DNA from: Candidatus Latescibacterota bacterium
Lineage (GTDB): Bacteria > Latescibacterota > UBA2968
DNA length: 64,000 bases
Direction: 5' to 3'
Assembly (NCBI GenBank): GCA_965204375.1
Contig: OZ241986.1
Span: 864,001 to 928,000, forward strand
The position numbers and the translations under genes were made by a program. The notes under the pieces were generated by a model. It was not told the DNA's origin. It saw only the letters and a program-made list of their open reading frames with translations, and made no database searches. Of the stretch, positions 1,625 through 64,000 are shown one piece after another (the stretch's first letter is position 1; each line of letters begins with the position of its first letter).

Positions 1625-2800
1625 ATGACACATACACTTGATTCTTACGGCGGCACAACCCAATTGAAGGGAAAAAGCACTGGCTGGTTCCATCTCGAGG
1701 AACTGGACGGGCGCAGATGGTTCATCACACCCGAGGGCAATGCCTTTTTCCCTGTGTCGCTGGCTCATATCTACACCGGCAACAGTCAGCCGACCGTGCA
1801 AAAGCTTTACGACGGCGACAAGGATGCGTGGATTGAAAAGTGGTTCGATCAGATGCGAGCACTCGGGTTTAACTGCGCCCTCGCAGGCGCGACGAGCCAG
1901 TGTCGGGACCCCAGGGGCTATGTGGATGTCGAGAAGGTGGAGGCGCTGTTTCGCCGCGAATCTTTCCCGTACGCTGCCGGACTCTTCCTGATTCCTCACC
2001 CCAACGAACTGCCGGAAGGTCAGGAACGCCCGGATATATTCGCCCCCGCTTACCAGGAGTGGGTAGAAGCGTTGGTAGCCGATGTTTGCTCGCGATACGC
2101 CGATGATCCATTGATGATGGGATACTACTATGGTTTCGGCACCTTTATCAGACCAGAGAACTGGATCGCTTCAATACCGTCGCTCGACAGCGAAGCACCA
2201 GAGCAGGAGAATATCCGCAAAATGGCGGTTCACATGTACCGTATGGTCCACGATGCGATACGTCGGCATGATCCCAACCACCTGATCCTCGGACCTTATG
2301 TCAAGGAGCAGTCCTTTGACCTGAAAACGTGGGAGGCTTTGACGCCTTATGTTGACATGCTTTCGCCCCAGCACTTCAACCGCGACATTAGTTTTGCCGA
2401 ACAGAGTGCAGCAACGGGCAGGTCTGTGCTGGTCTCTGACGAGGAGTCAGGCCATATTTTCGAAGCTTCACGCCAGAATCCGCGCAGTGTGACGTCCGAG
2501 CACAAAGGCCGCATCTACGGCTTGCTGCTCAACCGCCACTTGCGCGACTCGAACGTGTGCGGCGTCAATTTTTGCGCGACTCTGTACGATCTTGATGACG
2601 GTCCGCTGATGAAAATGTCCGGCATGACGGAAGGCCTGTACGACTGGGATGGTAACCCAAAGCCCGGTCTCGTGGATGCCGTGAGGGAGGCCAACAAGGA
2701 AATCTATGAACGCGCAACAGATCCATATCGTTCTGAACTCGCCGAATTGGATGAAGAGCTGTGTCGCGTCAGAGATGAGGTCCACAAACACATTCGTTAG
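1625..2800 (+). CDS. Agarase/GH50-like TIM-barrel glycoside hydrolase
   Basis: GWFHLEELDGRRWFITPEGNAFF N-terminus, PDIF.P.Y, DDPLMMGYY, AIRRHDPNHLILG; RBS GGAGG. Confidence 0.6.
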   Translation: MTHTLDSYGGTTQLKGKSTGWFHLEELDGRRWFITPEGNAFFPVSLAHIYTGNSQPTVQKLYDGDKDAWIEKWFDQMRALGFNCALAGATSQCRDPRGYVDVEKVEALFRRESFPYAAGLFLIPHPNELPEGQERPDIFAPAYQEWVEALVADVCSRYADDPLMMGYYYGFGTFIRPENWIASIPSLDSEAPEQENIRKMAVHMYRMVHDAIRRHDPNHLILGPYVKEQSFDLKTWEALTPYVDMLSPQHFNRDISFAEQSAATGRSVLVSDEESGHIFEASRQNPRSVTSEHKGRIYGLLLNRHLRDSNVCGVNFCATLYDLDDGPLMKMSGMTEGLYDWDGNPKPGLVDAVREANKEIYERATDPYRSELAELDEELCRVRDEVHKHIR

Positions 2801-2844
2801 ATGGGAAAGCTGTTCAGGGACACGACACTGGAGGAGCACAGGTT

Positions 2845-3630
2845 ATGGGACAAGCATTGACGGAGCGTGAGATCGAATCCATCGTCCGGGAGGTCACAGA
2901 CGAAGAAGTGGCTTTTTACCACGAATACGGATGGGTCATGATGAAGCAACTCGTGGACTCGGAGTTCGCAACGGAACTCCTGCGCGTTGGTCAGGAGTGG
3001 TTGAAACGCAATAGCGCCCCCAGACGGGCCGTCGGCCTGGCGCGGCGAGAAGAGACCGAGCCGTTCCGCTCGTTCATGTTCAGCGAGCGCATGTCAAAGA
3101 ACGCAACGCGACTCGTGAACAGGAAGCGGCTCAAGGGCGTAGATATCCCACTTCGCTATCGGATCGACATCCTCCAACACAAGCCCCCGGGGGCAGCCGG
3201 AGCCACTTATCATCAGGACTCGTCAGAGCACGGATCTGATCGCGTGGGCGAGCTTCAGTTCTGGCTTGCACTGGTGGAAGTGCCACCAGAGATGAGTGCC
3301 ATGCGATTTGTCAGTCGCTCACATCGCGAAGGACCGCTTGGCTCGGTATTCAAGGATGACCGGGGCAACCTGCTCGAGCAGTACCCAAATCTGACGTCTG
3401 TGCTGGAGCTTTCTCCGCCGCTCCATTACCAGCCGGGTGACTGCACTGTGCATCACGGATACACAGTCCATGGCGGTCCACCCAACAGCACCGAGAAGTC
3501 GCGCTGGTCATACCTCTTCTCATACTCCCCTTCTGACACGCGATACTGGAACGGCACCGCAGCCAACTGGGGCAGCGAGCGGAAGCGTTTGAGTGACCCG
3601 GTCAATCCAACGGTCCATTTTTCCGAATAA
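2845..3630 (+). CDS. Phytanoyl-CoA dioxygenase (PhyH) family Fe(II)/2OG dioxygenase
   Basis: FYHEYGW, HQD, WLAL..V, MRFV..SH, PGDCTVHHGYTVHG, R; RBS GGAGG. Confidence 0.85.
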   Translation: MGQALTEREIESIVREVTDEEVAFYHEYGWVMMKQLVDSEFATELLRVGQEWLKRNSAPRRAVGLARREETEPFRSFMFSERMSKNATRLVNRKRLKGVDIPLRYRIDILQHKPPGAAGATYHQDSSEHGSDRVGELQFWLALVEVPPEMSAMRFVSRSHREGPLGSVFKDDRGNLLEQYPNLTSVLELSPPLHYQPGDCTVHHGYTVHGGPPNSTEKSRWSYLFSYSPSDTRYWNGTAANWGSERKRLSDPVNPTVHFSE

Positions 3631-3647
3631 GATTTCAGGGGATTGAA

Positions 3648-4385
3648 ATGATTTCTGTACAACAATGGGACTTTTTTCAAGAACACGGTTATCTGATCGT
3701 TGAAAATGTGCTCTCTGTGCAACGATTGGCAGCGTTGCGAGAGGCCCTGGAAAAGAGATATGACCTGGAGGGCGAAAAGGCAGGGACAGAAGGATCGACC
3801 CCTCCGGGCGTTCGCAGGTTGTGCAATCTCATTGGTAAAGGCCGCGTCTTTGAAGAGCTGGCAATCGAGCCGATTGCATTAGAAATGGCCAGGCTGGTGA
3901 TTGGAGAGGATATGCGCTGGCAGGCCATGAATTTTCACGATCCCATGCCCGGTGATCCGCGTCCTATCCAGGCAATTCATGCCGATCGTTCGTTCTTTAA
4001 GAATTGTACTGCATACCTCAATGTGGTGTGGGCACTTGATGATATGACAGAAGAAAACGGTGCGACTCGCCTTGTGCCGGGATCGCATAAAAAACCCTGG
4101 CCCCGAGATGTTCTGGACGATCTCAAAGAGGCAGTTGCTGGAGAAATCTACGCGACCTGTACGGCTGGAACTGGCATTTTTTGTCACGGTGATATCTGGC
4201 ATGGCGCACGTGCAAACCTTTCAAAATCGCCCAGGCGTGTGATCCATATGGGATACAGTTGTACAAACACTGCGCCTCAATATGAAATTGCAGGCTCTTT
4301 GACGCAGGATATTCGCGAGCGGTTGGGCGAGCATTGCGCGCTCATTCCAGATCCCCTATCGTCATTTGATTTGGAGAAACCTTAG
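3648..4385 (+). CDS. PhyH family dioxygenase
   Basis: FFQEHGYLIVENV, HAD, WALDDMTEENGATRLVPGSH, IWHG..N.S...R. Confidence 0.9.
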   Translation: MISVQQWDFFQEHGYLIVENVLSVQRLAALREALEKRYDLEGEKAGTEGSTPPGVRRLCNLIGKGRVFEELAIEPIALEMARLVIGEDMRWQAMNFHDPMPGDPRPIQAIHADRSFFKNCTAYLNVVWALDDMTEENGATRLVPGSHKKPWPRDVLDDLKEAVAGEIYATCTAGTGIFCHGDIWHGARANLSKSPRRVIHMGYSCTNTAPQYEIAGSLTQDIRERLGEHCALIPDPLSSFDLEKP

Positions 4386-4390
4386 ATCTT

Positions 4391-5824
4391 ATGGCCAATC
4401 AAAAACCATTGAATTTTATATTTTTTCAACCAGACGAAATGCGAGCCGAGAGTTTGGCGTGTTATGGCCATCCAGTGATCAAAACCCCAAATTACGATCG
4501 CCTGGCGGCAGAAGGGGTTCGCTTTGACCAGTGCCATGTGCAAAATGCGCAATGTACGCCTTCCAGAGTTTCGATGATGACGGGGCTTTATCCCCATTGT
4601 GCGGGGCATCGCTCCATGTGGCATCTGATAAGGCCCCACGAACCCCATCTTTTTAAATATCTGTATGAAGCTGGCTACGATATTCACTGGTATGGAAAAA
4701 ATGATTTACTCGCGCGAGATAGTTTGTCCTGCATAAAAGAATATTACGAACACAAAGATGATAAAAGGAAGAATCGCTGGCAAAGCGGCGACAAGGAATT
4801 CTATAGTTTTGATTTTGAGCCTTTGAATTGCGAAAGGGAAGAGGTCGCTGATTATGTGAAAGTCAAATCGGGGATCGATTTTCTGAACAATCGCAGAGAT
4901 GATGACAATCCCTTCTTTTTGTTTTTGCCGCTTCTACAACCCCATCCAGGCTATACCACCCACCGCGATTTTTATGACATGTATGATCCCGGGGATATAC
5001 CGGATTTGAGACCCGCAGAGCTGGACAAAAAACCGGATTTTTACGCGCTCATCAGAAAGTACCGCCGTTTAGATGAATTGTCGGAGGATTTCTTTCGGAA
5101 ATTGAATGCTGTTTATCTCGGTATGATTAGCTATACGGACTGGCTTCTCGGAGAGCTGATGACCGTTATGGAGGAGAAGGGGCTTTTTGACAATACGGTT
5201 CTCATCGTTTCGTCTGATCACGGTGACTGGGCAGGGGACTATGGACTGGTTGAAAAATGGCCAAGTGATTACAGTGATGCGCTGACACGGGTGCCGCTAT
5301 TGGTAAAGGTGCCAGGTAACAAAGCAGGTCATGTGGTGGAAGGTCCGGTTGAGATGTTCGATCTCATGCCATCTGTTATGGAACTGGCCGGTCTTTCCCC
5401 AAAACACACCCATTTCGCCAGGTCCTTTGTGCCTCAACTCCGGGGTGAAGCGGAAGATAAGGATCGATTGGTATTTGCAGAAGGGGGCTATGAGACACAA
5501 GAACCCCATGCGTTTGAAGGACGATGGGACTGGCGTAAGCCCAACAAGGATGGTATCTATTTTCCCAAGGGCAAACTGCAACAAGAAGTGCCCGAAAGTG
5601 TTTGCCGCACGACGATGATCAGGAGTTTGAATCACAAGCTCATTCGACGCACAGCCGGTCAGGATGAATTATACGATCTCAAAAATGATCCCCAGGAGTT
5701 AAAGAATTTAATCGATGACCCGGGTATGCAAGAGACAAAGTTAGATCTGGAAAGGTCTATGTTGGATTGGTTTATGAGAACTTCTGATACTGTTCCCGTA
5801 GGGGGAGATCCAAGGGGATTTTGA
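4391..5824 (+). CDS. Sulfatase (formylglycine-dependent, Cys-type)
   Basis: NFIFFQPDEMR, CTPSRVSMMTG, SSDHG, ELYDLKNDPQE. Confidence 0.9.
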   Translation: MANQKPLNFIFFQPDEMRAESLACYGHPVIKTPNYDRLAAEGVRFDQCHVQNAQCTPSRVSMMTGLYPHCAGHRSMWHLIRPHEPHLFKYLYEAGYDIHWYGKNDLLARDSLSCIKEYYEHKDDKRKNRWQSGDKEFYSFDFEPLNCEREEVADYVKVKSGIDFLNNRRDDDNPFFLFLPLLQPHPGYTTHRDFYDMYDPGDIPDLRPAELDKKPDFYALIRKYRRLDELSEDFFRKLNAVYLGMISYTDWLLGELMTVMEEKGLFDNTVLIVSSDHGDWAGDYGLVEKWPSDYSDALTRVPLLVKVPGNKAGHVVEGPVEMFDLMPSVMELAGLSPKHTHFARSFVPQLRGEAEDKDRLVFAEGGYETQEPHAFEGRWDWRKPNKDGIYFPKGKLQQEVPESVCRTTMIRSLNHKLIRRTAGQDELYDLKNDPQELKNLIDDPGMQETKLDLERSMLDWFMRTSDTVPVGGDPRGF

Positions 5825-5853
5825 GGGAACACAACACTGGAGGAGCACAGGTT

Positions 5854-6666
5854 ATGGGACAGGCATTGACGGAGCGTGAAATCAAAGCCGTCGTTCGGGA
5901 GGTCACAGACGAAGAAGTGGCTTTCTACCAGGAATACGGGTGGGTCATGATGAAGCAGCTCGTAGATCCGGAGTTTGTCACGGAGCTTCTAACTGTCGGC
6001 CAGGGGTGGCTGGAACGCTATGGCGCAGACAAGGACCGCAGACGGGCTGTCGGCCTGGTACTGCAGGAAGAGGCTGAGCCATTCCGCTCGTTCATGTTCA
6101 GCGAACGCATGTCAAAAAACGCGATGCGACTCGTGAACAGGAAGCGGCTCAAGGGCGTAGATATCCCACTTCGCTATCGCGCTGACGTCTTCAGAGAAAA
6201 GCCCCCAGGGGCAGCCAGAACCCATTATCATCAGGACTCGTCACAGCACGGCTCTGATCGCGTGGGCGAGCTCCAGTTCTGGCTTGCGCTGGTGGAAGTG
6301 ACACCGGAGATGAGCGCGATGCGATTTGTCAGTCGCTCGCATCGCGAAGGACCGCTTGGCTCGGTAGGCGGCGATGGCAAGGGCGATCTGCTTGAGCAAT
6401 TTCCAAATCTGACGTCTGTGCTGGAGCTTTCTCCGCCGTTCCATTACCAGCCTGGTGATTGCACAGTGCATCACGGGTACACGGTCCATGGCGCTCCGGT
6501 CAATAGCACCGACAAGTCGCGCTGGTCATATCTCTTCTCATACTCGCCTTCCGACACCCGATACTGGAATGGCACAGCAGACAACTGGGGCAACGAGCGA
6601 AAGCATCTGAGTGACGCGGACAATCCAACGGTCTATTTTCCCGAACCAGAAAGAGGTCAGTTATGA
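5854..6666 (+). CDS. PhyH family dioxygenase, close paralog of 2845..3630
   Basis: Highly similar protein and the same 20-nt leader ACACTGGAGGAGCACAGGTT; start moved to ATG 5854. Confidence 0.85.
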   Translation: MGQALTEREIKAVVREVTDEEVAFYQEYGWVMMKQLVDPEFVTELLTVGQGWLERYGADKDRRRAVGLVLQEEAEPFRSFMFSERMSKNAMRLVNRKRLKGVDIPLRYRADVFREKPPGAARTHYHQDSSQHGSDRVGELQFWLALVEVTPEMSAMRFVSRSHREGPLGSVGGDGKGDLLEQFPNLTSVLELSPPFHYQPGDCTVHHGYTVHGAPVNSTDKSRWSYLFSYSPSDTRYWNGTADNWGNERKHLSDADNPTVYFPEPERGQL

Positions 6667-7796
6667 AACACAACGATCCTGTCGAACTCACCCTTGAGCA
6701 AAAACGCGCTTTCTATCGGGATGGATTCATTATTCTCAAAAACATCGTGCCCAAAGAGCTGACCCACCGTGCTCGACGACTGGTCAATATCACCGCAGGT
6801 CAAATTGTGAATGGTACGATGGACGCACCCAAAAGAAGAAATCGCTTCGTCGGCAGCGAAGACATCATCACAGATCTCATCAACAAAACGGCGCTAACCG
6901 AATTGCTCACCAATACCATGGGGCCATTTGATCCTCCGACAAACGGCTTTGCGCCGATTCTGTATCCGCGCGAACCAACCAGAGAAATCGGCATCCACGG
7001 TCTGCCCGATGATGAAGTGCCCAATCATGCATTTTTTCCGCATCTGGACGGCCAGTGGACAGGCCCCATTCCCAAAACAGCGGACGAAGTGGATGATTGG
7101 TACGCGCCCAAAACACCGCACTTTGGTGATCGCAGTGCCAGCGTGATCGGGATAAACGGTTCGCCTTTGTTTCAGGACCCGGATTGTATGCTCTCCATCG
7201 GCAGCTTTACCACATTCGTCGGCGTGATCCTGAGCGACCAATCCAAATTTGGCTACGGCAACTTTGCCGTTCTCCGCGGTGCCCATCATCACACAGCTGA
7301 ATTCTTTCGACGACAACGCGCCCAGGGCGGCGTCATCGGTCCCGAAGGTCCTGATTGGCCGCGTTTAAAACGCGTTGGCGATAAGGGTGTGGGCATTAAT
7401 TACATGCCGGAATGGATCGCTAATCACTATCGAGAAAGCGCGCAATACACGCCCGATGGTCTCATGTGGCCGGAGCCTACACCCTTGCTCGTTGAAGAGG
7501 GTGATGCGTTTATTACGGCTCACGGCATCCCACATTGTGGCACCCGCAATGACCTGGGTGCAGATCCTCGCATCAGTGCCTACTTTCGGCTGCGCCGCCA
7601 TCGTCCGGGAGGTGCAAAAGTGCGAGGAGACAGCGATCACCCCGACCGCGGTTGGGAAGGCGAATTTCTCGAATATCCCGATGGTTATAATCCCTGGCAG
7701 GTCGCAATCGATAAATTGTGCGATCCCTGGAGTGAATGGGACGGCATGCGGGAAGTCGTTGCCGAGGCAAGGGGTTTGGGAGATCAAAATAACTAA
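6663..7796 (+). CDS. PhyH-like dioxygenase (long form)
   Basis: AFYRDGFIILKNIVP, HLDG, GNFAVLRGAH, GDA...H..PH, R...YFR; ATGA overlap with upstream gene. Confidence 0.7.
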   Translation: MKHNDPVELTLEQKRAFYRDGFIILKNIVPKELTHRARRLVNITAGQIVNGTMDAPKRRNRFVGSEDIITDLINKTALTELLTNTMGPFDPPTNGFAPILYPREPTREIGIHGLPDDEVPNHAFFPHLDGQWTGPIPKTADEVDDWYAPKTPHFGDRSASVIGINGSPLFQDPDCMLSIGSFTTFVGVILSDQSKFGYGNFAVLRGAHHHTAEFFRRQRAQGGVIGPEGPDWPRLKRVGDKGVGINYMPEWIANHYRESAQYTPDGLMWPEPTPLLVEEGDAFITAHGIPHCGTRNDLGADPRISAYFRLRRHRPGGAKVRGDSDHPDRGWEGEFLEYPDGYNPWQVAIDKLCDPWSEWDGMREVVAEARGLGDQNN

Positions 7797-7818
7797 CTGT
7801 GCGACAAAGGAGTGCCAC

Positions 7819-9003
7819 ATGCCCTCAACTCAGAAATTTGAAGAGCGCGTCGTTCGCGTGGAGAAACCTTCCGCCCACTTTACGCTGTTGAGAAACGAAA
7901 AGGGTGATTTTTTAGGCACATCGGAAGGCGAGACAGCCGTCTTCGACCACGCTGACGACAAAGCGATCTGGAAAGAAGAAGGCGATACCTATCGCCACGT
8001 AGTGTCGGGCCTGACTCTCGATGTGTCTGCCGCGAATGACGAAGGCGTGCATCTCGCCCTGAATGGGAATTCACTGGGCGAAGACGGCTTCGAATCATCC
8101 GTGCCGGGGCGTTTCCAGCCGGGTCACGGCCCTGCCCATCTTCCGTCCGAATACCTTCAGCAAATCCGCGAGAACGGGTGGGTCTGCCTTCCGAGCATCT
8201 TGTCTCCCCAAGCGATTGAAGAACTGCAAAGGGTGAGTTGTACCGGCAAGTGGGATCATGAAGAATTAGACAAAAGCCTGCCGACCCTCACGCAGTCTGT
8301 GGAAGTGTCGAGAGCCGCAACCGAGCCAGTATCCCTCTGGGTGATGCGGGAGTATATGCAGTGTCGGGAAATTCGGCTGGCGCACAGGCCCGGTTTTGCC
8401 GTCGTGGCCCCGGATGACGGTGAACGCAAAGTGGGGGGGTGGCATTCGGATTATCCCTACCTCTGGGGGATCGCCAGGAATTCCTCCGATGGCAATCGGA
8501 TCGTACCGCACAATGCGCTAAATCTCGTTCTTGGCGTTCAGCGAAATTTATGTGTGACCGAATTTAAGAGTGAAAACGGCGCAACCTGTTTCAAACTCGG
8601 ATCGCATACGTTTGGGCAAGGACCTCCTCCAGGATGGGGGAGTGGGAATACGTACAGGGAGGAGGGATCTCGCCAGGCAAAGGGCCTCCCCTATACAGGC
8701 TCCGAGGCAGATGTCGTCGAGGCACCGGCGGGCAGCTACGTCATCTATGATGCCCGAACCTGGCATCGAGCAGGTGTGAACCGCACGGACAAAAAACGGG
8801 CGGCGATGCTTCAGTCCGTGGTTCCCATGTACATCATGCCTTTTATGGAGACCGCTCGTCCCTACAAGGAGTTCCTTGCGAGTCCTCTCGCGAGTCAACT
8901 GACGGAGCGGGAGCATATCGAGCTGGAAAGTCTCCTCGTAAGCCGAATCGATGGGCCTCAGGGGCGTTTTGCAATCACTATGGATGAGGAACTTTCAAGA
9001 TGA
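7819..9003 (+). CDS. PhyH family dioxygenase with extra N-terminal beta-rich domain
   Basis: RBS AAGGAG before ATG 7819; ENGWVCLP, WHSD, NGAT..LGSH, APAGS..IYDARTWHRAGVN.T...R. Confidence 0.8.
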   Translation: MPSTQKFEERVVRVEKPSAHFTLLRNEKGDFLGTSEGETAVFDHADDKAIWKEEGDTYRHVVSGLTLDVSAANDEGVHLALNGNSLGEDGFESSVPGRFQPGHGPAHLPSEYLQQIRENGWVCLPSILSPQAIEELQRVSCTGKWDHEELDKSLPTLTQSVEVSRAATEPVSLWVMREYMQCREIRLAHRPGFAVVAPDDGERKVGGWHSDYPYLWGIARNSSDGNRIVPHNALNLVLGVQRNLCVTEFKSENGATCFKLGSHTFGQGPPPGWGSGNTYREEGSRQAKGLPYTGSEADVVEAPAGSYVIYDARTWHRAGVNRTDKKRAAMLQSVVPMYIMPFMETARPYKEFLASPLASQLTEREHIELESLLVSRIDGPQGRFAITMDEELSR

Positions 9004-9761: not shown

Positions 9762-9782
9762 CACTATAGAAGGAGGAATATC

Positions 9783-12374: not shown

Positions 12375-12395
12375 CGAGCGGCGACTATCGAGTAT

Positions 12396-55740: not shown

Positions 55741-55742
55741 TC

Positions 55743-56681: not shown

Positions 56682-56694
56682 GATATTCCTCCGT

Positions 56695-57543
56695 TTATGA
56701 TTTTTCCCGACGAGGCGTCACGCGCCAGTCGGTTCGCAGTTCGGCAACGCGGTCGGCTGGCGGTTGCATGAAGCGCTTGACCCTTTCACTGGCTTTCGCT
56801 TGCAGCTCAGGCCCGGCCAGTTCCCAGGCATTGTAGAACAGCCGGTCGCCGTTTGGTACGATGCGGATGTTCAGGGTGCGCCGGGGCTTGTGAGTCTGAT
56901 TTACGCCTGCGCAATGCAGGCCTCCCGCGTTTACAATTAGTAAATCACCCGGATCGCCGGTCGCCTGGATCTTGTTGCTGTCTGAATCCGGCTCGGGATC
57001 CATCATTTCGGGTTCGTCGGCTTTGAAACAATGTGTGCGCGGAATCAACCGGGTACCGCCGTTTTCCGCTGAATAGCCGTCGAGCATAAAGAAGAACCAC
57101 AGGCCGTTGTGCTTGCCTTCGTCCGTGAGGCCGGGCCTGAAGTCGCGATGGAAGTGCCCCTGCCTCGCGTCCGGGTGATAGCGTACGGTGTTGGCAACGA
57201 GATCTAAAAAATGGTAAGTACCCAGAGCGCGTTCGCAGATCCCGTGAACGGTGTCGTGGTCGAGCAAATCCATGGCCGCTTTACCCCACATGAAACAGGC
57301 ACGGGCATTTGGATTGATTGTGAAGTTGCGTTTCCCTTTTCCGTCGAGAATGCGCACTTCAGGCAACTTCATTCCCCCTTGCCACTCGGCGATATAATCA
57401 TCCGCAGCACGCTGGGCGATATCCCGGAGAGGGGCGAGATACCCGGGTGCGATTTGCTCCCGCAGGATGACATAACCGTTTTCTTGCAGATCGGCTACGT
57501 GTGCGTCCAATTTCTCGTCGCTCATTGGATGGACTGGTTGCAT
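56695..57543 (-). CDS. PhyH family dioxygenase
   Basis: LQENGYV, FHRD, NGGTRLIP.TH, PGD...N..LH.AG.N...RR. Confidence 0.85.
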   Translation of the reverse strand: MQPVHPMSDEKLDAHVADLQENGYVILREQIAPGYLAPLRDIAQRAADDYIAEWQGGMKLPEVRILDGKGKRNFTINPNARACFMWGKAAMDLLDHDTVHGICERALGTYHFLDLVANTVRYHPDARQGHFHRDFRPGLTDEGKHNGLWFFFMLDGYSAENGGTRLIPRTHCFKADEPEMMDPEPDSDSNKIQATGDPGDLLIVNAGGLHCAGVNQTHKPRRTLNIRIVPNGDRLFYNAWELAGPELQAKASERVKRFMQPPADRVAELRTDWRVTPRREKS

Positions 57544-57571
57544 AGGTTGATCTCCTTTCGCGTTGCGGACG

Positions 57572-57594
57572 AATTGAAGTTACGTTCAAGATGT
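57572..57594. repeat. Left part of split copy of the ~126-bp duplicated segment
   Basis: AATTGAAGTTACGTTCAAGATGT identical to 63712-63734. Confidence 0.9.
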
Positions 57595-59066
57595 CAACGA
57601 GGGTCGCCAGCTTCAATTGTTCGTTCCAACAGCCTGCTGCGCATGGCTTCTTCCCGATCTCGATAATCCGGGTTTCCTGCCAGATTCACCAGTTCGCCCG
57701 GGTCGTTCTGCAAGTCGTAAAGTTCAGAACGATCGTTCACATAATGTGCGTATTTCCAATTCTGGTTTCGAACCATGCGACCCCGAGAAAGGAAGAACGT
57801 TCCCGACTCAACCAGCGGCAATTCAGGTACGGGTTCAGTCCGACTCGTGCCGGCTTTCAGCGCGTCCAGTTCTGCTTCTGGTCCTCCCTCTGGCAATGGC
57901 TGACGGCTGCCAACTTCCGCATAGGTACAGTCTCTTTCTGGAGCCATACCCGACATCATTTCGGTCACACTTCTACCCTGAACACCCGGCGGAATCGAGA
58001 TTCCGCTACTCTGGAGTAATGTAGGCATCAAGTCGATTTGCTCAATTTGTAGTGCGTTGGTTGCACCATCCCGTGCATGTTCCAAACCCCTTACGATCAA
58101 CGGGACCTGGACAATGCAGTCGTAGAATGCAGCTGTTTTCCGAATGAGTCCGTGTTCGCCCAGGTACTCACCGTGGTCACCTGTGGCAACAATGATGGTG
58201 TCGTCCCAACGACCAAGCGCTTTTAGTCCATCAAAGAATTTGCCCAAGCATTCATCCAGGTGCCTGAGCATGCCGTAGTAATACGCCATTGTCTGCCGCA
58301 GCTGCTCGTCATCCATGAGATGTAGCCATCCGCCGTGATAATAGACTTGCTGAACGAATGGTTTTGAGTCCAATTCACCCTCAGGTCTATGTGGGAGAGG
58401 CATGTCCTCTGGTCTGTACATCGTGGCAAAAGGTTCGGGAGCCCGATAGGGCGGATGAACATCGGAAAAGCTCAACCACACAAACGAAGGCTCGTCACCC
58501 TTCCGTTCAAGATAATCGAGGGCATGATTCACGTTGGCTCTTGCTGGAGATTCAGCAGGATCAAAAGGATAGGTTCCGCCATACCAGATTGGGTTTGGGT
58601 GATCTCCCCAACGGAAACGTCTTGTTTGTGATTCGAACACGGATGGGTCGATGGGTATTGCAGGCCCAGGAAATGGCTTCCCATAGGCTTCTCTCTGCTT
58701 TTGCCGAAGTGGTGACTCTTCAATACACACTTCAAATCCTGCAGTTTCGGCATCTGGAAAGCAGTGGTTTTTCCCAAATAGGCCACAGCCGACGCCAGCA
58801 TCTTTCAATAGCCCTGGAAGATGAAACCCTTCCTTTTCTTGCATCAACAGCGTGTTGTCTCTGGAACCTGTAACGCTGGGATAACGACCCGTGAAAAATG
58901 CGACCCGTGATGCGACGCAGAGTGGAGAAGGTACGGTGCAGTTTTCAAACCTGATGGCTTCGCTGGCAAAGCGATCTAGATGAGGTGTCGCTTTGACGGG
59001 ATTGCCATAGCATCCCAATGCGCGAGCGGCAAGATGCTCAATGGTGATTACGACAATGCTTTTCAT
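57594..59066 (-). CDS. Sulfatase (CxAxR variant)
   Basis: CVASRVAFFTG, GKNH, GDHG, ELYDL.NDP.E. Confidence 0.88.
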   Translation of the reverse strand: MKSIVVITIEHLAARALGCYGNPVKATPHLDRFASEAIRFENCTVPSPLCVASRVAFFTGRYPSVTGSRDNTLLMQEKEGFHLPGLLKDAGVGCGLFGKNHCFPDAETAGFEVCIEESPLRQKQREAYGKPFPGPAIPIDPSVFESQTRRFRWGDHPNPIWYGGTYPFDPAESPARANVNHALDYLERKGDEPSFVWLSFSDVHPPYRAPEPFATMYRPEDMPLPHRPEGELDSKPFVQQVYYHGGWLHLMDDEQLRQTMAYYYGMLRHLDECLGKFFDGLKALGRWDDTIIVATGDHGEYLGEHGLIRKTAAFYDCIVQVPLIVRGLEHARDGATNALQIEQIDLMPTLLQSSGISIPPGVQGRSVTEMMSGMAPERDCTYAEVGSRQPLPEGGPEAELDALKAGTSRTEPVPELPLVESGTFFLSRGRMVRNQNWKYAHYVNDRSELYDLQNDPGELVNLAGNPDYRDREEAMRSRLLERTIEAGDPR

Positions 59067-59085
59067 CTTTTATCCAGTCTCTGTG

Positions 59086-59193
59086 GATGTGTAAAAGGGC
59101 TGATCACGATATTCGGGTAGGAACCGCTGTTGTTATCACCCATCATCACGATCCTTTCGCCCGTTGAAACCAGTCAATGAGTTGGCTTTTAAG
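59086..59193. repeat. Right part of split copy of the duplicated segment
   Basis: 108 bp matching 63730-63837 with one mismatch (TGATCAC vs TGATCGC). Confidence 0.95.
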
Positions 59194-59231
59194 TCTGTAA
59201 CAATGATGAGAAAATTTGGTTTTGTGGCCAT
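59136..59231 (-). pseudogene. Hollowed-out sulfatase: 5' stub fused to a 3' end
   Basis: MATKPNFLIIVTD joined out of frame to DNA encoding LKSQLIDWFQRAKGS* of the sulfatase ending at 63790. Confidence 0.8.
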
Positions 59232-59246
59232 AATGATCTACCTGGA

Positions 59247-60089
59247 TCATTCCTTGAGCGCGGCAGCATCCTCAGCGATCCACTCTTCCCATCTCTCTTC
59301 GTCGGGTTGCATAAATCCACTGTTGGCTCGCCGAAATACATTTGCATCTTCGCCCAAGAGGCGCAGTAGTCGACGATTGCCAGTCGCTCGTGCTCGCGTT
59401 TTGACTGCTTGAGAAATTGGGCCTGAATAATTGGCTCTGTGTTTAAGCCAGGAATGATTCATCGTTAAAAAGAAAAGGTATCGGTATTCCTTTGAGTAAT
59501 TGGCTGTTCCCGAGTGTACGATAGCATTGTGAAATACGGCGATATCTCCAGATTTGGGATAAAGGATGACTTCGTCGGGGTGGGGTTGCTTTCTTTCTTC
59601 GGCCGTTAAAGACATGGCTTTCATGTGAGAACCTGGAATAATACGTAGGGGGCCAATTTCATCATCGAGATTCTGCAAATAGCTCAGGGCATTGAAGAGT
59701 AAGGGCCTTTGGTAGATGCCTTCTTGAGGAAATTCGGCAAACATGTCCCGGTGAAAACCCAGTACCGGGTTTGTGTTTGGGTCCTGTGGTGCCGTGCGCC
59801 GGTATGTGATGGATTCGAGTTGGACATGCGGGCCGACGATCATTTCACAAAAGTCCAATAGGCGATCATTTTGTAAGGCCGAAAGTACGAGATCGGGTTT
59901 GTGTTCGAGCACATCCACAAAAACCTGGGGACGACTGCCATCGGGATTAGGCAGGCGATCACCGATTTCTTCAAATGAATCCCGCATAGCTTTGACCCAG
60001 ACATCGTCCAGCATCTTTGGGAAAAGTGTAAATCCAACTGTTTTGAATTCTTCAAGGTGTTCCTGGAGAGATTTGGTACCTTCTCGCAT
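59247..60089 (-). CDS. PhyH family dioxygenase
   Basis: FKTVGF, FHRD, GPLRIIPGSH, GD...F...VH.G..N...R. Confidence 0.88.
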   Translation of the reverse strand: MREGTKSLQEHLEEFKTVGFTLFPKMLDDVWVKAMRDSFEEIGDRLPNPDGSRPQVFVDVLEHKPDLVLSALQNDRLLDFCEMIVGPHVQLESITYRRTAPQDPNTNPVLGFHRDMFAEFPQEGIYQRPLLFNALSYLQNLDDEIGPLRIIPGSHMKAMSLTAEERKQPHPDEVILYPKSGDIAVFHNAIVHSGTANYSKEYRYLFFLTMNHSWLKHRANYSGPISQAVKTRARATGNRRLLRLLGEDANVFRRANSGFMQPDEERWEEWIAEDAAALKE

Positions 60090-60120
60090 TTTCAGCCCCC
60101 TCGTGTTTCAGTAATAATTA

Positions 60121-61077
60121 CTACTTAGATTTGGGTCCCTTGTAAGGTTGGCCGATAGGGAATCCGTGCGGTTCAAGGTGCGGACGGAACGGTACCATAT
60201 CGGCGATTTCCTTAAGCCCGGAGAGTATCTCTGGAGGAAGAGGTCCTTTTTCAGCAGCTGCCACATTTTGTTCGACTTCCTCTATAGATTCTGTCCCCAT
60301 GAGAACGGTGGAGACGTTGGGATTGGAAATTACCCATCGCAGAGCGACTTCTGCAAGTGGTAATCCGATTTCATCCACAAAAGCGTAGAGTTTTTTGAAC
60401 TGCTCCAGACGTGGCGGACTCAGCCATCGTGCGCCATTTTCCAGTTCCGGGATGTCGCGACGGGCCAGAAGACCCTTGAAAAAGGCTGCACCTATGACAA
60501 TTCCCATATTCTGTTTCTTAGCTTCAGGCAATCCAGAAATAGCGAATTCCTGCCGGACCAGATTGTAATTACCCGCTGCCAGAACCACATCGTAGTTACC
60601 TGTGGCCATGATGTGTGGAAGTTCATAGGAACTGGTGCCAGCCAGCCCTGTGAATTTGATTATTTTTTCCTCTTTAAGTTTCTCCAGGACTTCACACACA
60701 GGTCCATGGAAATTGTCATAGTCAGTCCACCAATCGAATATTGAGGGATGGTCAGGTTCATGGATTTGCAGAATATCAATACTGTCGCGCTTAAGCAGTC
60801 GGAGGCTCTCATCAACTGACCGACGTAGCATATCTTTATCCTGTGCGTCAAATGGTTTGGGCCTTCCTCCGAGCTTAGTGGCTATGTAATGCGATTGACT
60901 CGCTCCCTCCAGGCCGATCCCTATATTTTTCTCACTATTTCCATAGCCGGGAGCCGTGTCTATATAGTTTACGCCCAGTCCCAGCGCGCGCCGCACAGTC
61001 TCTGGCTTTGCTCCAACTCCTCCCATACCGAGAACAGTGACTTCAAATCCCGTGCGTCCAAGAATTCGTTTCTCCAC
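60121..61077 (-). CDS. Aldo/keto reductase
   Basis: GTG start with AGGAGG; KRILGRTG, IDTAPGYG, IATK, IDILQIH. Confidence 0.92.
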   Translation of the reverse strand: MEKRILGRTGFEVTVLGMGGVGAKPETVRRALGLGVNYIDTAPGYGNSEKNIGIGLEGASQSHYIATKLGGRPKPFDAQDKDMLRRSVDESLRLLKRDSIDILQIHEPDHPSIFDWWTDYDNFHGPVCEVLEKLKEEKIIKFTGLAGTSSYELPHIMATGNYDVVLAAGNYNLVRQEFAISGLPEAKKQNMGIVIGAAFFKGLLARRDIPELENGARWLSPPRLEQFKKLYAFVDEIGLPLAEVALRWVISNPNVSTVLMGTESIEEVEQNVAAAEKGPLPPEILSGLKEIADMVPFRPHLEPHGFPIGQPYKGPKSK

Positions 61078-61100
61078 ATAGCCCTCCTATTTGGCAGAAG

Positions 61101-62447
61101 TCAGGATTGGAAAATCGTCCCGGGCCACGGATAAGCGTTGGATCCAGCCTCATCATCGATGGGGCCTTCCGGCAGTGTGGCTTGCCAATCCATGACCTGC
61201 TCTGACATCTGCTTGACCAGGGTCTCTTCAAATTTGGCGTGATTGACGAGTTCCATCGGATCTGCGGGAATGTTGTACAACTCGACACGACTTCTGTCCG
61301 GGTTGAGAAGCAGCTTCCAGTCACCCTCGCGGATTGAAAGGATCGGGCTTTTGTGAAGGCAATGGCCGTGAACCCGAAATCGCCACTCCCACATCAACGG
61401 CGTCGTGCGATCTACCGAGTTACCTCGAAAGGCGGCTGTCATATCCTCGCCCTGCAGACCAATGTTGTCGGGAATGTCTATGCCAGCGATAGAACAAAAA
61501 GTAGGCAATAGGTCTATGGCACATAAGGGCGTCGTGTTGTCAACTTTGCCTTTTGGTCCGCCACTGCTTGGCCACCGAAGAATGAAAGGGGTTCGCACAC
61601 CGCCTTCGTAGAGGCTTCTTTTTCGACCTCGAAAGGGACCAGAAGAACCGACGCCACTGTGTGACGCATTTCGAACGTGGATATCCTCGGGGCCGTTGTC
61701 AGCAGAGAAGATGACAATCGTGTTGTCGGAAAGGCCCAGTTGATCCAGCCGATCCATGAGCCGTCCAATGTGGTAATCCGCGTTGGTAACGACAGAATAG
61801 TAGATGCGTAGTGCACCTTTGTGTTTGTCTTCCAGGCCTTGAGCGGTAAAATTCATATAGGGTTCCATCTGTTCCTCTGTAGGATCCAGAGTGGCGTGAG
61901 TGTCAAGCAACCACGCTTGCACAAAGAAAGGCTCATCCCGATGTCTTTCGATGAAGGATATGGTTTCATCTACAATTACCTCTGTAGATTGAGATCTGCC
62001 TTCGGGAATCTCAATGGCGGGTCCGACCGCATTGAATGTTTTGGATTCGTCAATCCCATAAGCCGTGGTATTGGGTGCTTCTTCGCCACTTCCCAGGTGC
62101 CACTTGCCAAAGTGGCCAACAGCATATCCACTTTGTTGCAGGAGACCTGTGATGGTCGTTGCATCGGGATCCAACCAGTCTGGCATGCCGCGTTGGGCGT
62201 TCTGCTCGTGACGGGCAAAATGGCCATGTATGCCCCAGTGGGCAGGAAATCGACCCGTCATGACCGCTGCCCGGCTGGGTGAGCACACACCCGAGCAAAC
62301 ATAGAATTGTGAGAAGAGAATGCCCTGCGAAGCGAGCCGATCCAGATTTGGCGTTTTTACAAACTGGTGGCCGTAGCAACTCAAGTCACCCCACCCCCAA
62401 TCGTCGGCGAAGACAAATACGATATTGGGTCTTTTCGATTCAGCCAT
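61101..62447 (-). CDS. Sulfatase (arylsulfatase/GalNAc-6-sulfatase-like)
   Basis: RPNIVFVFADD, CSPSRAAVMTG, GKWHLG, ADNG, YEGG. Confidence 0.92.
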   Translation of the reverse strand: MAESKRPNIVFVFADDWGWGDLSCYGHQFVKTPNLDRLASQGILFSQFYVCSGVCSPSRAAVMTGRFPAHWGIHGHFARHEQNAQRGMPDWLDPDATTITGLLQQSGYAVGHFGKWHLGSGEEAPNTTAYGIDESKTFNAVGPAIEIPEGRSQSTEVIVDETISFIERHRDEPFFVQAWLLDTHATLDPTEEQMEPYMNFTAQGLEDKHKGALRIYYSVVTNADYHIGRLMDRLDQLGLSDNTIVIFSADNGPEDIHVRNASHSGVGSSGPFRGRKRSLYEGGVRTPFILRWPSSGGPKGKVDNTTPLCAIDLLPTFCSIAGIDIPDNIGLQGEDMTAAFRGNSVDRTTPLMWEWRFRVHGHCLHKSPILSIREGDWKLLLNPDRSRVELYNIPADPMELVNHAKFEETLVKQMSEQVMDWQATLPEGPIDDEAGSNAYPWPGTIFQS

Positions 62448-62515
62448 TGCGGTTCTCCTTCAGGTTGTAGGAACTGGGCAGAGTCTTAATGCAGAGTAAT
62501 ATCTTAAATATCGAT

Positions 62516-63664
62516 TCACGAATTCAGTGCATTGCAGATGACGGCAGGTGGCGCAACTGTCACCGTTTCGCTCAAGGCGAACGGTGCACCCACTGGTGCC
62601 GCCACCCAGGACTGATCCGGTTGGACATCGTCCAGTGCCGACCAGAAGCCGCGCTCGAGGCGGGGCGACGACGATGCTTTGATCTCCACCGCGACGAGCT
62701 TATTTCTCCGTCGGATCAGGAGGTCGATCTCAGCGCCGGCCGCGGTCCGATAGAAGCTCAGTTCGGCGTCGGGCACCGCCGCGGCGATTTGCTCGATGAC
62801 GTATCCTTCCCAGGAGTTGCCGCGAACCGGATGGCCATCCAGGTCGTCGAGAGAATCCAAACGCAGCAGCCGGTGAAGGATGCCGGTATCTCTGAGATAA
62901 ACACGGGGACTCTTCACCAGGCGCTTCTTGACGTTGGCCGCGCAGGGTGAAAGCCGCCTTACCATGTAGGCCTGCTCAAGGATGCGGAGATAGTGTCCAA
63001 CCGTCTTGCCCGTTACGCCCAGGGAAGAAGCCACTTTGGCGTGGTTCCACAGATCCCCATGCAGGTGAGCGCACATCTCCCAGAATTGCCGCAGCGTTAT
63101 CGCGGGTACGCGGATACCCAGTTGAGGAATGTCGCGTTCGAGAAACGTCTGGATGAAACTGTCCAGCCACGCCCGGCTCATTTCGTCTGATGGGGCCAGA
63201 TAGCTTCGCGGGAATCCGCCTCGCAGCCAGAGCCTTGACTGATTCTCCGCCCCGATCTCTTCTTCGACAAAGGGCGTCAGTTCGATGAAACCGATGCGAC
63301 CGGCGAGCGTCTCAGACGACTGTTGGAGCAGAGCTGGAGAAGCCGATCCCAGCACCACGAACTGCCCCGGAGAACCGGTCTCATCGCAAAGCCCGCGAAG
63401 CACGCGAAACAATTCGGGGACGCGCTGGATCTCGTCGAGGCAGACGATGTGATCCCGATGGCGGCGGAGGTAATCTTCTGGCTCGGCCAGACGTGCGGCG
63501 TCGGAAGGAAGCTCGAGGTCGAGATAGTGTGACGCTGGCTGTTCAGCAAGCCACGTCTTGGCCAGGGTGGTCTTTCCACACTGGCGAGGCCCCAGAATTG
63601 CCGTGACAGGGAAGTACCTCGCGTATTCAGAGACCTTTGTCTGAATTTTTCTGTTGATGTTCAT
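62516..63664 (-). CDS. AAA_14 + DUF4143 ATP-binding protein
   Basis: GPRQCGKTT, LDEIQ, LGS, GGFP, KSPR.Y..D.G, EIDL, EIK; likely start MNINR at 63664. Confidence 0.9.
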   Translation of the reverse strand: MNINRKIQTKVSEYARYFPVTAILGPRQCGKTTLAKTWLAEQPASHYLDLELPSDAARLAEPEDYLRRHRDHIVCLDEIQRVPELFRVLRGLCDETGSPGQFVVLGSASPALLQQSSETLAGRIGFIELTPFVEEEIGAENQSRLWLRGGFPRSYLAPSDEMSRAWLDSFIQTFLERDIPQLGIRVPAITLRQFWEMCAHLHGDLWNHAKVASSLGVTGKTVGHYLRILEQAYMVRRLSPCAANVKKRLVKSPRVYLRDTGILHRLLRLDSLDDLDGHPVRGNSWEGYVIEQIAAAVPDAELSFYRTAAGAEIDLLIRRRNKLVAVEIKASSSPRLERGFWSALDDVQPDQSWVAAPVGAPFALSETVTVAPPAVICNALNS

Positions 63665-63670
63665 TCTTGT

Positions 63671-63699
63671 AATATGGGAGTCTATCTCCCAATTTGCAA
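63671..63699 (-). promoter_or_regulatory. Sigma70-like promoter, probably giving a leaderless mRNA
   Basis: TTGCAA-17 bp-CATATT ending 7 nt before the ATG at 63664; spacer holds palindrome GGGAG-tctat-CTCCC; no RBS. Confidence 0.45.
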
Positions 63700-63711
63700 G
63701 GATAAAACACA

Positions 63712-63837
63712 AATTGAAGTTACGTTCAAGATGTGTAAAAGGGCTGATCGCGATATTCGGGTAGGAACCGCTGTTGTTATCACCCATCATCACGATCCTT
63801 TCGCCCGTTGAAACCAGTCAATGAGTTGGCTTTTAAG
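63712..63837. repeat. Intact copy of the ~126-bp duplicated segment
   Basis: Contiguous version of 57572-57594 plus 59086-59193. Confidence 0.95.
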
Positions 63838-64000
63838 ATCGTTATAAATCTCGGGATATTGACTGGCTAAATCATTGGCTTCGCCAATATCCTGATCGAG
63901 CTTGTACAATTCAAATTGCAATTCTTCAATAGCCGGAATAGCCTCGGCAAATTGCCCGCGATGATTAGGGCCTGTACCAACCAGTTTCCAATCGTCTTTT
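63790..64000 (-). CDS. Sulfatase, 3' end only (runs off window)
   Basis: KDDWKLV...FELYKLDQDIGEANDLASQYPE...LKSQLIDWFQRAKGS*, typical sulfatase C-terminus; not in the ORF track. Confidence 0.85.
   Translation of the reverse strand, partial: KDDWKLVGTGPNHRGQFAEAIPAIEELQFELYKLDQDIGEANDLASQYPEIYNDLKSQLIDWFQRAKGS

Follow-up and report, generated by a model that had tools for sequence, protein, structure and literature searches.

The window, a stretch of 64,000 nucleotides at 0.864–0.928 Mb of the genome of a sponge-associated Latescibacterota bacterium, is in our judgement probably a hypervariable gene array, with a predicted role in sulfated-glycan catabolism; that grading covers jointly the array and the origin proposed for it below. 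Domain scanning of 52 window ORFs against Pfam identified nine sulfatases, about ten PhyH dioxygenases and five enolase-superfamily genes, along with aldo-keto reductases, xylose-isomerase-like TIM barrels, GH5, a GH43/130-like gene and an RND pump (Table 1). Sulfatases, glycoside hydrolases or lyases and sugar-acid enzymes are co-located, as in a sulfated-glycan catabolic cluster; no SusC/SusD-type genes were seen among the window Pfam matches. The genome as a whole has at least 151 sulfatase matches, and DNA of the window recurs in sponge metagenomes.

Table 1. Features of the array, with positions counted from the first nucleotide of the window.
Feature	Coordinates	Strand	Basis
Plus-strand catabolic run	1625–13741	+	Pfam
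Members of run 1625–13741: five PhyH-type dioxygenases, sulfatases 4391–5824 and 10968–12374		+	Pfam
Also in run 1625–13741: enolase-superfamily gene 9783–10937, arylsulfotransferase-like gene 12494–13741, three ORFs with no family match		+	
PhyH gene with 32-nt leader; dispersed paralogue of 5821–6645	2813–3627	+	self-BLAST, BLASTP
Segment deleted in G004, GGAGA at both ends	4378–5803	+	
Low-GC insert, three small ORFs of no clear family	13736–16681	+	GC 0.32–0.40
GH5 (cellulase-family) gene	16685–18232	+	Pfam
MacB/FtsX-type duplicated permease unit (ORF 22546–24945)	22513–25016	-	Pfam
Sulfatase 27840–29192 and PhyH gene 29255–29974	27840–29974	-	block order, junction sequences
RND efflux operon: AcrB-like, HlyD-like, outer-membrane factor	37856–43592	-	Pfam
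Two neighbouring sulfatase genes	51193–54430	-	absent from G002
Split copy of segment S (57569–57594 and 59086–59193), sulfatase ORF in between	57569–59193	.	self-BLAST
Sulfatase ORF found in several contexts	57594–59066	-	Pfam
Unbroken copy of segment S with one GATGT, 5' end of AAA_14/DUF4143 ATPase gene 62516–63790	63709–63837	.	Pfam

Base composition does differ between neighbouring genes, as a first-pass annotation of the window had noticed: gene GC ranges from 0.318 to 0.628 and GC3 from 0.257 to 0.791, and the two genes it had singled out have GC values of 0.430 (54449–55603) and 0.615 (30805–31965). Gene GC has a standard deviation of 0.058 in the window; among 52-gene runs across the genome the median of this value is 0.041, and 4.7% of the runs reach 0.058. 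The description of the genes as mostly co-oriented is roughly right, with plus-strand genes at 448–19207 followed by minus-strand genes at 19215–63793 and one plus-strand gene at about 48434–50320. The reported short spacers are real (window median 37.5 nt) but not special, the genome median being 28 nt. No shared junction motif was found; enrichment among the words of the spacers is confined to Shine-Dalgarno and AT-rich ones.

We compared the array with seven syntenic genomes of the same genus that are 92–95% identical and collinear around rpoB. As a housekeeping control, the rpoB region aligned in one piece over 20 kb in 12 of 14 congeners, with 92–95% identity in 11 and 87% in one. The window, by contrast with these backbone controls, splits into 15–24 blocks per relative. 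Gene order is not conserved among the relatives and the array is a mosaic between close genomes, in line with the earlier expectation; the locus is the same and a skeleton is kept, while content differs. Thirty-three of 51 genes are variably present, and 15 of the 51 occur in all seven relatives and form the conserved skeleton. No block is inverted (0/127). Many blocks are 97–99.9% identical to genomes in which the rpoB region reaches only 92–93%. Two other sulfatase-rich regions of the genome are broken up likewise, into 7–17 and 3–17 matches per genome.

Similarity tends to break at gene boundaries. Genes were delimited here by crude ORF calling, and BLAST places block ends only to within a few nucleotides; within those limits, 34 of 93 breakpoint clusters are strictly intergenic, compared with 5.7% of positions, and 56 of 93 fall no more than 30 nt from a gene end, compared with 10.4% of positions. 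Upstream of starts the median distance to a block end is 19 nt; beyond stops it is 2.5 nt. About a third of the clusters (∼30/93) lie well within genes, and gene boundaries are therefore not the only sites of events. Comparison with the relatives supports the proposal that what is gained, lost and relocated here is single units of RBS+ORF size. Genes 4391–5824, 6663–7796, 9000–9761 and 10968–12374 are each missing from G004, at gene-boundary junctions. The GH5 gene is present in the syntenic locus of one of the seven relatives (G004). The RND operon is kept in all seven; its position in the array differs in G006 and G008.

The indel junctions themselves are enriched for microhomology, as had been suspected: 9 of 42 unique events carry 4–11 nt, where 0.8 would be expected (p ∼ 1e-7). 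These overlaps of at least 4 nt, above chance and with one copy at the empty site, are those of ILLEGITIMATE recombination. Filler of 1–30 nt of unrelated sequence stands at the junction in 26 of the 42 events. One of 15 tested fillers is a remnant of the missing segment, and erosion after deletion is therefore documented once only. The two neighbouring sulfatase genes are absent from G002, with a 7-nt junction overlap, ATGCGCT; the joint 51185/54431 is also found in a contig of metagenome run X1, where the seven letters fit both sides. Further gene-boundary joints are carried by metagenome contigs.

Several events can be read in one direction. G004 retains the final 21 nt of sulfatase 4391–5824 at the 4378–5803 junction, so that event is a deletion; G004 has a sulfatase copy of 85% identity at another place, and its alignment runs through window position 5821. 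G008 retains the first 19 nt of the same sulfatase and a 17-nt piece of 6625–6641. Such stubs at several supposedly empty sites in G004 and G008 speak against arrival as the sole direction of change, the reading of the first-pass annotation. Duplication is also in evidence. G008 carries a tandem duplicate of window 18245–22518 that is 96–97% identical, with one copy decaying, and segments 27853–29208 and 29255–29967 are swapped without inversion in G008, G009 and G010; an intermediate and order changes without inversion are what tandem duplication followed by loss produces. The PhyH pair 2813–3627 and 5821–6645 (85.7% nucleotide and 82% amino acid identity) has two genes between its copies, and in G002 and G012 the second copy lacks 648 nt from its interior.

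The first-pass annotation had listed 16 pairs of short direct repeats around genes of the window as the boundaries of a new kind of cassette. All 16 are present exactly where it placed them. They do not exceed chance: the flank matches of window genes are those of 5078 other genes, the longest word common to the two flanks of a gene averaging 5.2–7.3 nt in the window and 5.1–7.2 nt elsewhere (Mann–Whitney p 0.11–0.30 for four flank definitions). Own flank pairs slightly exceed mismatched pairs in the window (Mann–Whitney p 0.005–0.14; restricted permutation p 0.015–0.22). An equal small excess occurs genome-wide, and it persists when the compared flanks are moved 200–350 nt away from the gene ends with their spacing unchanged (genome p 0.02–0.48, window p 0.048–0.17); it is therefore an effect of local composition. 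Empty sites do exist in relatives, as had been predicted, but several are deletions and only one of the 16 pairs has a clean match to its predicted empty junction (GATGT 57590/59086, matched at window 63709–63779). Two further pairs have approximate matches with no kept repeat copy (TTCAGGG in G006; ATTTGG in G008 and G010), and the predicted junctions of the other 13 have no match. None of the listed repeats overlaps the nine cross-genome junction microhomologies; GATGT alone is corroborated, through the copy in the same genome. The claim of a new cassette system marked out by microhomology at its flanks does not hold, because repeats of this kind are expected by chance around any gene. We consider the 4–9 nt repeats around most genes likely to be chance matches that would at most serve as deletion substrates, not arrival scars, a judgement graded together with the overall reading.

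Two units stand in several different contexts. The permease unit occurs in at least four genomic contexts among congeners, at 97% identity; it has the window context only in G000, G012 and G022 and lies elsewhere in six other genomes. Its relocations are megabases apart, and where it begins and ends varies from one context to another, by as much as tens of nucleotides. In L040 and L044 it is flanked by a 9-nt target duplication, CCTATATTG, present as a single copy at the G000 empty site. The left end of the inserted unit lies 118 nt from the nearest repeated element and not at a repeat terminus. In one relative, the unit stands among repeated elements. Sulfatase 57594–59066 has four upstream and three downstream contexts among relatives, with homology stopping within about 5 nt of the start codon. 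The four upstream contexts are independent and diverge inside the RBS-to-start interval, no more than ∼5 nt from the ATG, where a new context must itself supply the ribosome-binding site. Flanks moved along with the units are short (0–70 nt).

The same sulfatase ORF splits one copy of segment S, a 108-nt repeat with 99% identical copies in the window self-BLAST. GATGT stands on both sides of the ORF, and the predicted empty junction is matched at 97% over 71 nt. Two polarisable insertions have target-duplication-like repeats, of 9 nt (CCTATATTG) and 5 nt (GATGT); a third insertion, in G004, has an imperfect one of 8 nt. With no more than 91–93% identity, the flanking duplications of 76 and 419 nt are not fresh target duplications.

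Neither the window nor its surroundings yielded a dedicated machinery. The first-pass annotation was right that the array has no integron integrase: PF00589 has two matches in the genome, proteins of 297 and 308 aa encoded at 3.37 and 4.26 Mb, each over 2.4 Mb from the window. An attC site is an imperfect palindrome of about 55–140 nt with GTTRRRY cores that follows each cassette. Spacers of this kind are absent, again as claimed: of 47 co-oriented spacers, 29 fall below 55 nt, and GTTRRRY was found twice, with 2.3 expected. Nor does the window hold a DDE transposon; transposase and recombinase domains are both absent from the 52 scanned ORFs. A genome-wide search for mobile-element families (PF01609, PF01797 and PF00078) gave 31 matches to DDE_Tnp_1, all outside the window, none to Y1_Tnp and two to RVT_1, both far from the window. 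Neither recombinases nor reverse transcriptases provided an enzyme candidate in or beside the window. No tRNA gene occurs in the window or the next 12 kb and no Rfam family in the window, and no terminal inverted repeats were seen by eye on the moved units. Duplications of 5, 8 and 9 nt and a unit end off a repeat terminus do not fit DDE, HUH or composite transposons. The idea of a discrete new system is not supported by these results: unit end points vary, filler is frequent, about a third of the breakpoint clusters are intragenic and no candidate enzyme was found.

We favour, as the probable account, a model in which three ordinary processes shape the array. RecA-independent illegitimate recombination at microhomologies of 0–11 nt would delete and insert segments. 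Tandem segmental duplication with subsequent piecemeal loss would re-order co-oriented genes without inversion and leave short duplicated stubs, and homologous exchange with co-occurring related lineages would spread the variants. Selection may retain whole RBS+ORF units. Because spacers in the long co-transcribed runs measure 10–40 nt, selection and a deletion bias would favour events that end between a stop codon and the next RBS, and surviving modules would consequently resemble exact RBS+ORF cassettes. The mosaic, the microhomology at junctions, the duplication intermediate, the block identities above backbone and the lack, in the window, of the integrase, transposase and reverse-transcriptase families searched are observed; the enzymology, how selection acts and which way most events went are inferred. 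Several observations argue against parts of this model. The junction spots are very narrow, which speaks against simple random breakage unless selection is very strong. The 5-, 8- and 9-nt target-duplication-like repeats are at odds with it, as plain two-ended illegitimate joining yields none. The megabase moves of the permease unit argue against local duplication and loss as their explanation. The shortness of the flanks that travel with moved units (0–70 nt) and the filler in 26 of 42 events, with a remnant of the missing segment in only 1 of 15 tested, count against the model as well.

In its strongest form, the idea of the first-pass annotation would be an unrecognised mechanism that moves single RBS+ORF units between operon junctions, integron-like but lacking IntI and attC, for instance by way of a circular or single-stranded intermediate or by switches of template at translation signals, and producing short, variable target duplications. 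It would account for one ORF at 96–97% identity in at least four contexts with homology ending 0–30 nt from start and stop (the permease and sulfatase 57594–59066), for junctions between RBS and ATG in several independent contexts, for the short duplications flanking insertions and for the invariably kept orientation. Gene-scale flux that is alike in other sulfatase arrays of the genome, and the further joints in metagenome contigs, also fit. We nevertheless regard it as unlikely. Flank repeats are not enriched over controls, junctions share no motif or hairpin-sized spacer, and the ends of one unit shift by up to tens of nucleotides between contexts. Filler at most junctions, intragenic breakpoint clusters, empty sites that are proven deletions, the age of the 76- and 419-nt duplications and the lack of a candidate enzyme in or beside the window all count against it as well. 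If it were true, RBS+ORF units would be cut and pasted without ever inverting and with target duplications of 5–9 nt, making hundreds of sulfatase, dioxygenase and dehydratase genes a shuffled cassette library, and such shuffling would operate in Latescibacterota and perhaps in other sulfatase-rich symbionts.

Transposases encoded elsewhere might instead mobilize single genes in trans, through MITE-like ends or one-ended transposition, and leave duplications of 5–9 nt. A 9-nt target duplication, as seen at the permease unit, is a common transposon signature; the 31 DDE_Tnp_1 matches include several multi-copy families, multi-copy short repeats exist (e.g. a ∼ 300-nt element at window 16357–16653), and the permease unit lies amid repeated elements in one relative. 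However, the moved units lack terminal inverted repeats by eye, the duplications vary in length, 118 nt separate the left end of the permease unit from the nearest repeated element, and neither a transposase domain nor a multi-copy element is found at junctions inside the window, which makes this route improbable. That the mosaic is an assembly or binning artefact of mixed strains is highly improbable, even though all compared genomes are metagenome-assembled, G000 has an estimated contamination of 5.5% and related strains co-occur in sponge metagenomes: Logan contigs of X15 and X17, two samples from a single study that may include the source, match 44705–63780 with no differences and stop only at 48751–48778 and at the 108-nt repeat S, the same junctions recur in several independent assemblies (e.g. 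13735/∼18240 in G002, G006, G008, G009 and G010), mis-joins would fall within shared sequence and not where similarity stops, and housekeeping DNA is collinear in the same assemblies.

The array resembles several known systems in part. It shares with integron cassette arrays long co-oriented runs of packed units of about RBS+ORF size and a content that differs between close relatives (here 33/51 genes), yet the end points of one unit differ between contexts. Unlike integrons, it has no integrase nearby, no attC-sized spacers, no GTTRRRY enrichment and only loose end points, and it consists of ordinary catabolic enzymes on a conserved skeleton. The flexible (hypervariable) genomic islands of marine bacteria combine a fixed site with variable content and swapped multi-gene cassettes. 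The fixed location, kept flanks, variable content, mixed composition and some blocks above backbone identity are similar here, but the window has no tRNA gene, integrase or IS, and single-ORF variation is interleaved with the skeleton. Tandem duplication followed by random loss is best known from mitochondrial gene-order evolution. Co-oriented re-ordering without inversion, the decaying G008 duplicate and short duplicated stubs match it; the same gene lying megabases away in other genomes is not explained by it. In tailed-phage mosaics, as here, similarity breaks at gene boundaries, mostly with no conserved boundary sequence, and single genes stand between conserved neighbours; the present case differs in being a bacterial chromosome with catabolic operons and in recurring in other sulfatase arrays of the genome. 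In the available portion of one account, mycobacteriophage mosaicism is read as illegitimate recombination plus selection, or as the work of short boundary sequences (PMC3029335). Sulfatases, glycoside hydrolases and sugar-acid enzymes also make up the sulfatase-rich clusters of Latescibacteria and sponge symbionts, which the available portions of two reports treat as metabolic potential (PMC4454575, PMC7081726); ORF-level mosaicism is the feature of the array described here.

Complete and close genomes in which catabolic operons have been rebuilt ORF by ORF offer dozens of datable junctions, together with duplication intermediates and cases of one ORF in several contexts. The array is therefore good material for the long-standing question of how operons are assembled and reshuffled, and in particular of whether mosaicism at gene boundaries in cellular genomes arises by random illegitimate recombination plus selection, as argued for phages, or by something targeted. 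A further lesson is how bacteria that live with sponges diversify their very large sets of sulfatases.

The low-GC insert is missing from all seven syntenic relatives, and its ORFs gave only sub-threshold matches to Pfam and NCBIfam. It opens with a terminator-like hairpin, directly past the stop codon of the arylsulfotransferase-like gene.

This locus adds to the hypervariable accessory regions a new example in which mosaicism is unusually fine, at the scale of the ORF. The surroundings of rpoB are collinear, forming a single 20-kb alignment in 12 of 14 same-genus genomes (92-95% identity in 11 of these, 87% in one), and a random control region showed a few breaks only; the window is shattered by comparison. 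Alignment of seven syntenic regions, from relatives that are metagenome-assembled species representatives and not independent, yielded 127 blocks at 88-99.9% identity; no block is inverted, and many are absent, added or re-ordered. The block ends, which BLAST places to within a few nt, fall into 93 clusters, of which 34 are strictly intergenic (5.7% of positions are intergenic) and 56 are no more than 30 nt from a gene end (10.4% of positions); ~30 clusters are deep within genes. Relative to curated starts the median end lies 19 nt upstream of the start codon, so that the ribosome-binding site is kept, and relative to stops it lies 2.5 nt past the stop codon. All seven relatives share 15 of the 51 genes, 33 are variable and three, those of the low-GC insert, occur in none. 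Two adjacent genes have their order swapped in three relatives. Two further sulfatase-rich regions of the same genome (G000) are fragmented likewise, so the flux is a property of such arrays and not of a single locus. Recent exchange between lineages is suggested by the many blocks that share 97-99.9% identity with genomes of 92-93% backbone identity. Keyword searches of the literature met no report of ORF-level mosaicism in Latescibacterota arrays.

The window is a sulfated-glycan catabolic array. G000 is a single 6.34 Mb contig (GC 50.8%) with at least 151 sulfatase matches; the window occupies its positions 864001-928000. Among the ~51 genes that we called as ORFs in the window, Pfam recognizes nine sulfatases, about ten PhyH-type dioxygenases, five enolase-superfamily genes, two aldo-keto reductases, two xylose-isomerase-like TIM barrels, oxidoreductases (GFO/IDH/MocA, SDR and zinc-ADH), two CN-hydrolases, GH5 and a GH43/130-like protein, an arylsulfotransferase-like protein, an RND efflux operon, a MacB/FtsX-type permease and, at the edges, two AAA-ATPase genes. 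Nine ORFs, including three small low-GC ones, fall below the Pfam and NCBIfam cut-offs. Metagenome runs with window DNA are mostly labelled as sponge metagenome.

Positions of the features discussed (window positions unless G000 or a fetched locus is named)
Feature	Position	Remark
Gene run, + strand	448-19207	
Gene run, - strand	19215-63793	
Lone + gene inside the - strand run	near 48434-50320	
Edge ATPase genes	448-1563; 62516-63790	PF09820; AAA_14 + DUF4143
Family-less ORFs	1625-2800; 6663-7796; 9000-9761; 33948-35237; 45640-47790; 48434-50320	NCBIfam, relaxed Pfam
Sulfatase lost in G004 and G008	4391-5824	
Gene before the low-GC insert	12494-13741	terminator-like hairpin immediately 3' of stop
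Low-GC insert	13736-16681	GC 0.32-0.40
ORFs of the low-GC insert	14116-14478; 14499-15134; 15539-16063	
Short recurring piece	16289-16345	45-57 nt
~300-nt element	16357-16653; G000 4447429-4447726	copies 95% identical
Stretch duplicated in G008	18245-22518	
Permease unit	~22513-25016	MacB/FtsX-type gene
Adjacent genes with swapped order	27853-29208; 29255-29967	
Mobile sulfatase ORF	57594-59066	
Segment S, split copy	57569-59193	
Segment S, uninterrupted copy	63709-63837	129 nt
High-identity stretch running past window end	63729-66895	fetched locus L048
509-nt stretch	G000 929660-930168	~1.66 kb past window end
~0.94-kb insertion sequence	G000 ~3862816-3863760; locus L052 7816-8760	DDE_Tnp_1, 287-291 aa

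Individual units can be followed between contexts. The permease unit has its window context in G000 and two relatives (G012, G022) only. A 97% copy lies elsewhere in six other genomes, in at least three further contexts, and the ends of the shared stretch vary by context. One context has a 9-nt direct repeat on both sides, present as a single copy at the empty site in G000; in two others the unit lies between duplications of 76 nt and 419 nt, whose copies share only 91-93% identity. The permease gene was also met at 93% identity on two short contigs labelled as other phyla (Bacteroidetes, Poribacteria), most likely Latescibacterota contigs binned elsewhere. The mobile sulfatase ORF has four upstream neighbours, diverging within about 5 nt of the ATG, and three different downstream neighbours. 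It splits one of the two copies of segment S, with GATGT on either side. Crossovers between sulfatase paralogues are judged an unlikely source of start-codon junctions, because nucleotide identity seems too low and non-sulfatase genes show such junctions too.

The first-pass annotation had proposed an integrase-free, attC-free array of single-gene cassettes bounded by 16 pairs of short direct repeats. All 16 pairs are present at the positions given, but their frequency is at chance level. Over four flank definitions, the longest word common to a gene's own two flanks averaged 5.2-7.3 nt in the window, compared with 5.0-6.9 nt for mismatched non-adjacent flank pairs (Mann-Whitney p 0.005-0.14; p 0.015-0.22 by permutation, restricted by leaving adjacent genes with overlapping flanks out of the mismatched pairs). 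For 5078 other G000 genes, from a crude caller that mis-called some of them, the value was 5.1-7.2 nt (window versus genome p 0.11-0.30), and the same faint excess appeared in windows slid 200-350 nt off the gene ends with spacing unchanged. The faint excess seen in this test, which follows the one first proposed, is thus neither gene-end- nor window-specific. Its recurrence genome-wide and at shifted positions makes it an effect of local base composition; two flanks of 40-60 nt are expected to share a 5-7 nt word. The empty junction predicted by each pair was sought in the seven syntenic relatives, all fetched loci and G000, and 13 of the 16 have no match there. GATGT, with a clean match at 63709-63779, is the sole pair that stands. 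G006 has a real empty site for TTCAGGG, and so have G008 and G010 for ATTTGG, but none of them keeps the repeat. Abrupt shifts in composition between genes were confirmed (gene GC3 0.26-0.79; top 5% of 52-gene runs, again by the crude gene calls). The short spacers, also reported, are present but typical of the entire genome.

Among 42 unique clean indel events, nine have a 4-11 nt overlap between their ends, against a chance expectation of 0.8 (p about 1e-7), and none of these nine microhomologies is among the repeats first listed. Unrelated filler of 1-30 nt occurs in 26 events, and three have neither overlap nor filler. The idea that fillers are remnants of deleted genes holds in only one of 15 and was not taken as a general explanation. 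At the site of the lost sulfatase, G004 retains the last 21 nt of the gene and G008 the first 19 nt together with a 17-nt fragment from the next-but-one gene; these stubs mark both empty sites as certain deletions. G008 also holds a tandem duplicate with one copy eroding, a direct intermediate of duplication then loss. Such duplication and loss changes gene order without inversion and leaves short duplicated stubs, of which S and the PhyH paralogue pair are examples.

We consider that known processes together with selection probably give the most economical account of these data. Microhomology-mediated illegitimate recombination would act alongside tandem duplication then loss and homologous exchange between relatives, while selection and deletion bias in tight operons would spare only events that leave whole RBS+ORF units. 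Selection-filtered mosaicism is an argument long applied to phage mosaics, according to passages of PMC3029335. Three points fit this account poorly: independent junctions are very tightly clustered beside start codons, moved units have short flanks, and the few polarisable insertions show 5-9 nt repeats resembling target duplications. For these reasons we retain a dedicated, unrecognised ORF-level mechanism, unlikely as we judge it; recombinase, transposase, reverse transcriptase, tRNA, Rfam and motif searches found no machinery for it. Modular flux of single genes that involves no integron is real, as the first-pass annotation had it, but the evidence it proposed and its 'new system' find no support. 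Transposases acting in trans are a distinctly improbable source of the moved units. DDE_Tnp_1 has 31 matches in the genome and none in the window, and no Y1 transposase was found in the genome. It is hardly credible that the mosaic is an assembly artefact, since contigs from two metagenome runs (two samples of one study) match the window order over 44705-63780 with 0 differences and additional joints, located at the same boundaries between genes, occur in other sponge metagenomes.

Several specific candidates were rejected. The integron reading fails because the two tyrosine recombinases of the genome are both megabases from the window; 29 of 47 spacers are shorter than 55 nt, the integron core GTTRRRY is at expectation, and the only enriched spacer words are Shine-Dalgarno and AT-rich. 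A tRNA-linked island was set aside because ARAGORN detected no tRNA gene within the window or over the following 12 kb. IS/MITE mobilisation was unsupported at the sole checkable unit end. The genome has two reverse transcriptases, both distant from the window, and no Rfam family reached gathering thresholds in the window. The edge ATPases, two unlike AAA-ATPase genes on either side of the array, were considered as possible machinery; their families are often fused to nuclease-like domains, but no link to the junctions was found. The genome holds 10 copies of DUF4143.

The ~0.94-kb insertion sequence has five other sites in G000, and further copies at 85% identity occur in G000 and, in number, in G006; transposition is thus active in the genus, though none was seen in the window. 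The low-GC insert is missing from all seven relatives, and its ORFs gave sub-threshold matches only (HTH_23 and an NCBIfam Wmk-like HTH, E 0.002). Besides its one further G000 copy, the ~300-nt element within it occurs once or more in each of at least seven other genomes of the genus. The short piece just upstream recurs many times, including in neighbouring-family genomes at 88%; neither gave a tRNA by ARAGORN or an Rfam match. The 509-nt stretch is missing from G002; ARAGORN called no tRNA in it, and its start resembles what we take to be the 3' part of a tRNA. The high-identity stretch carries the DUF4143 ATPase gene and one more sulfatase. Its identity is 98.9-99.9% to G004 and G002, against only 92% in the rpoB regions of these genomes, which suggests very recent inter-species exchange. 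In several sulfatases (those starting at 4391 and 10968, 57594-59066, 61101-62447 and others) the Pfam Sulfatase domain begins at residue 4-8 of the ORF, which leaves no space for a signal peptide; if the start codons are right, these enzymes would be cytoplasmic.
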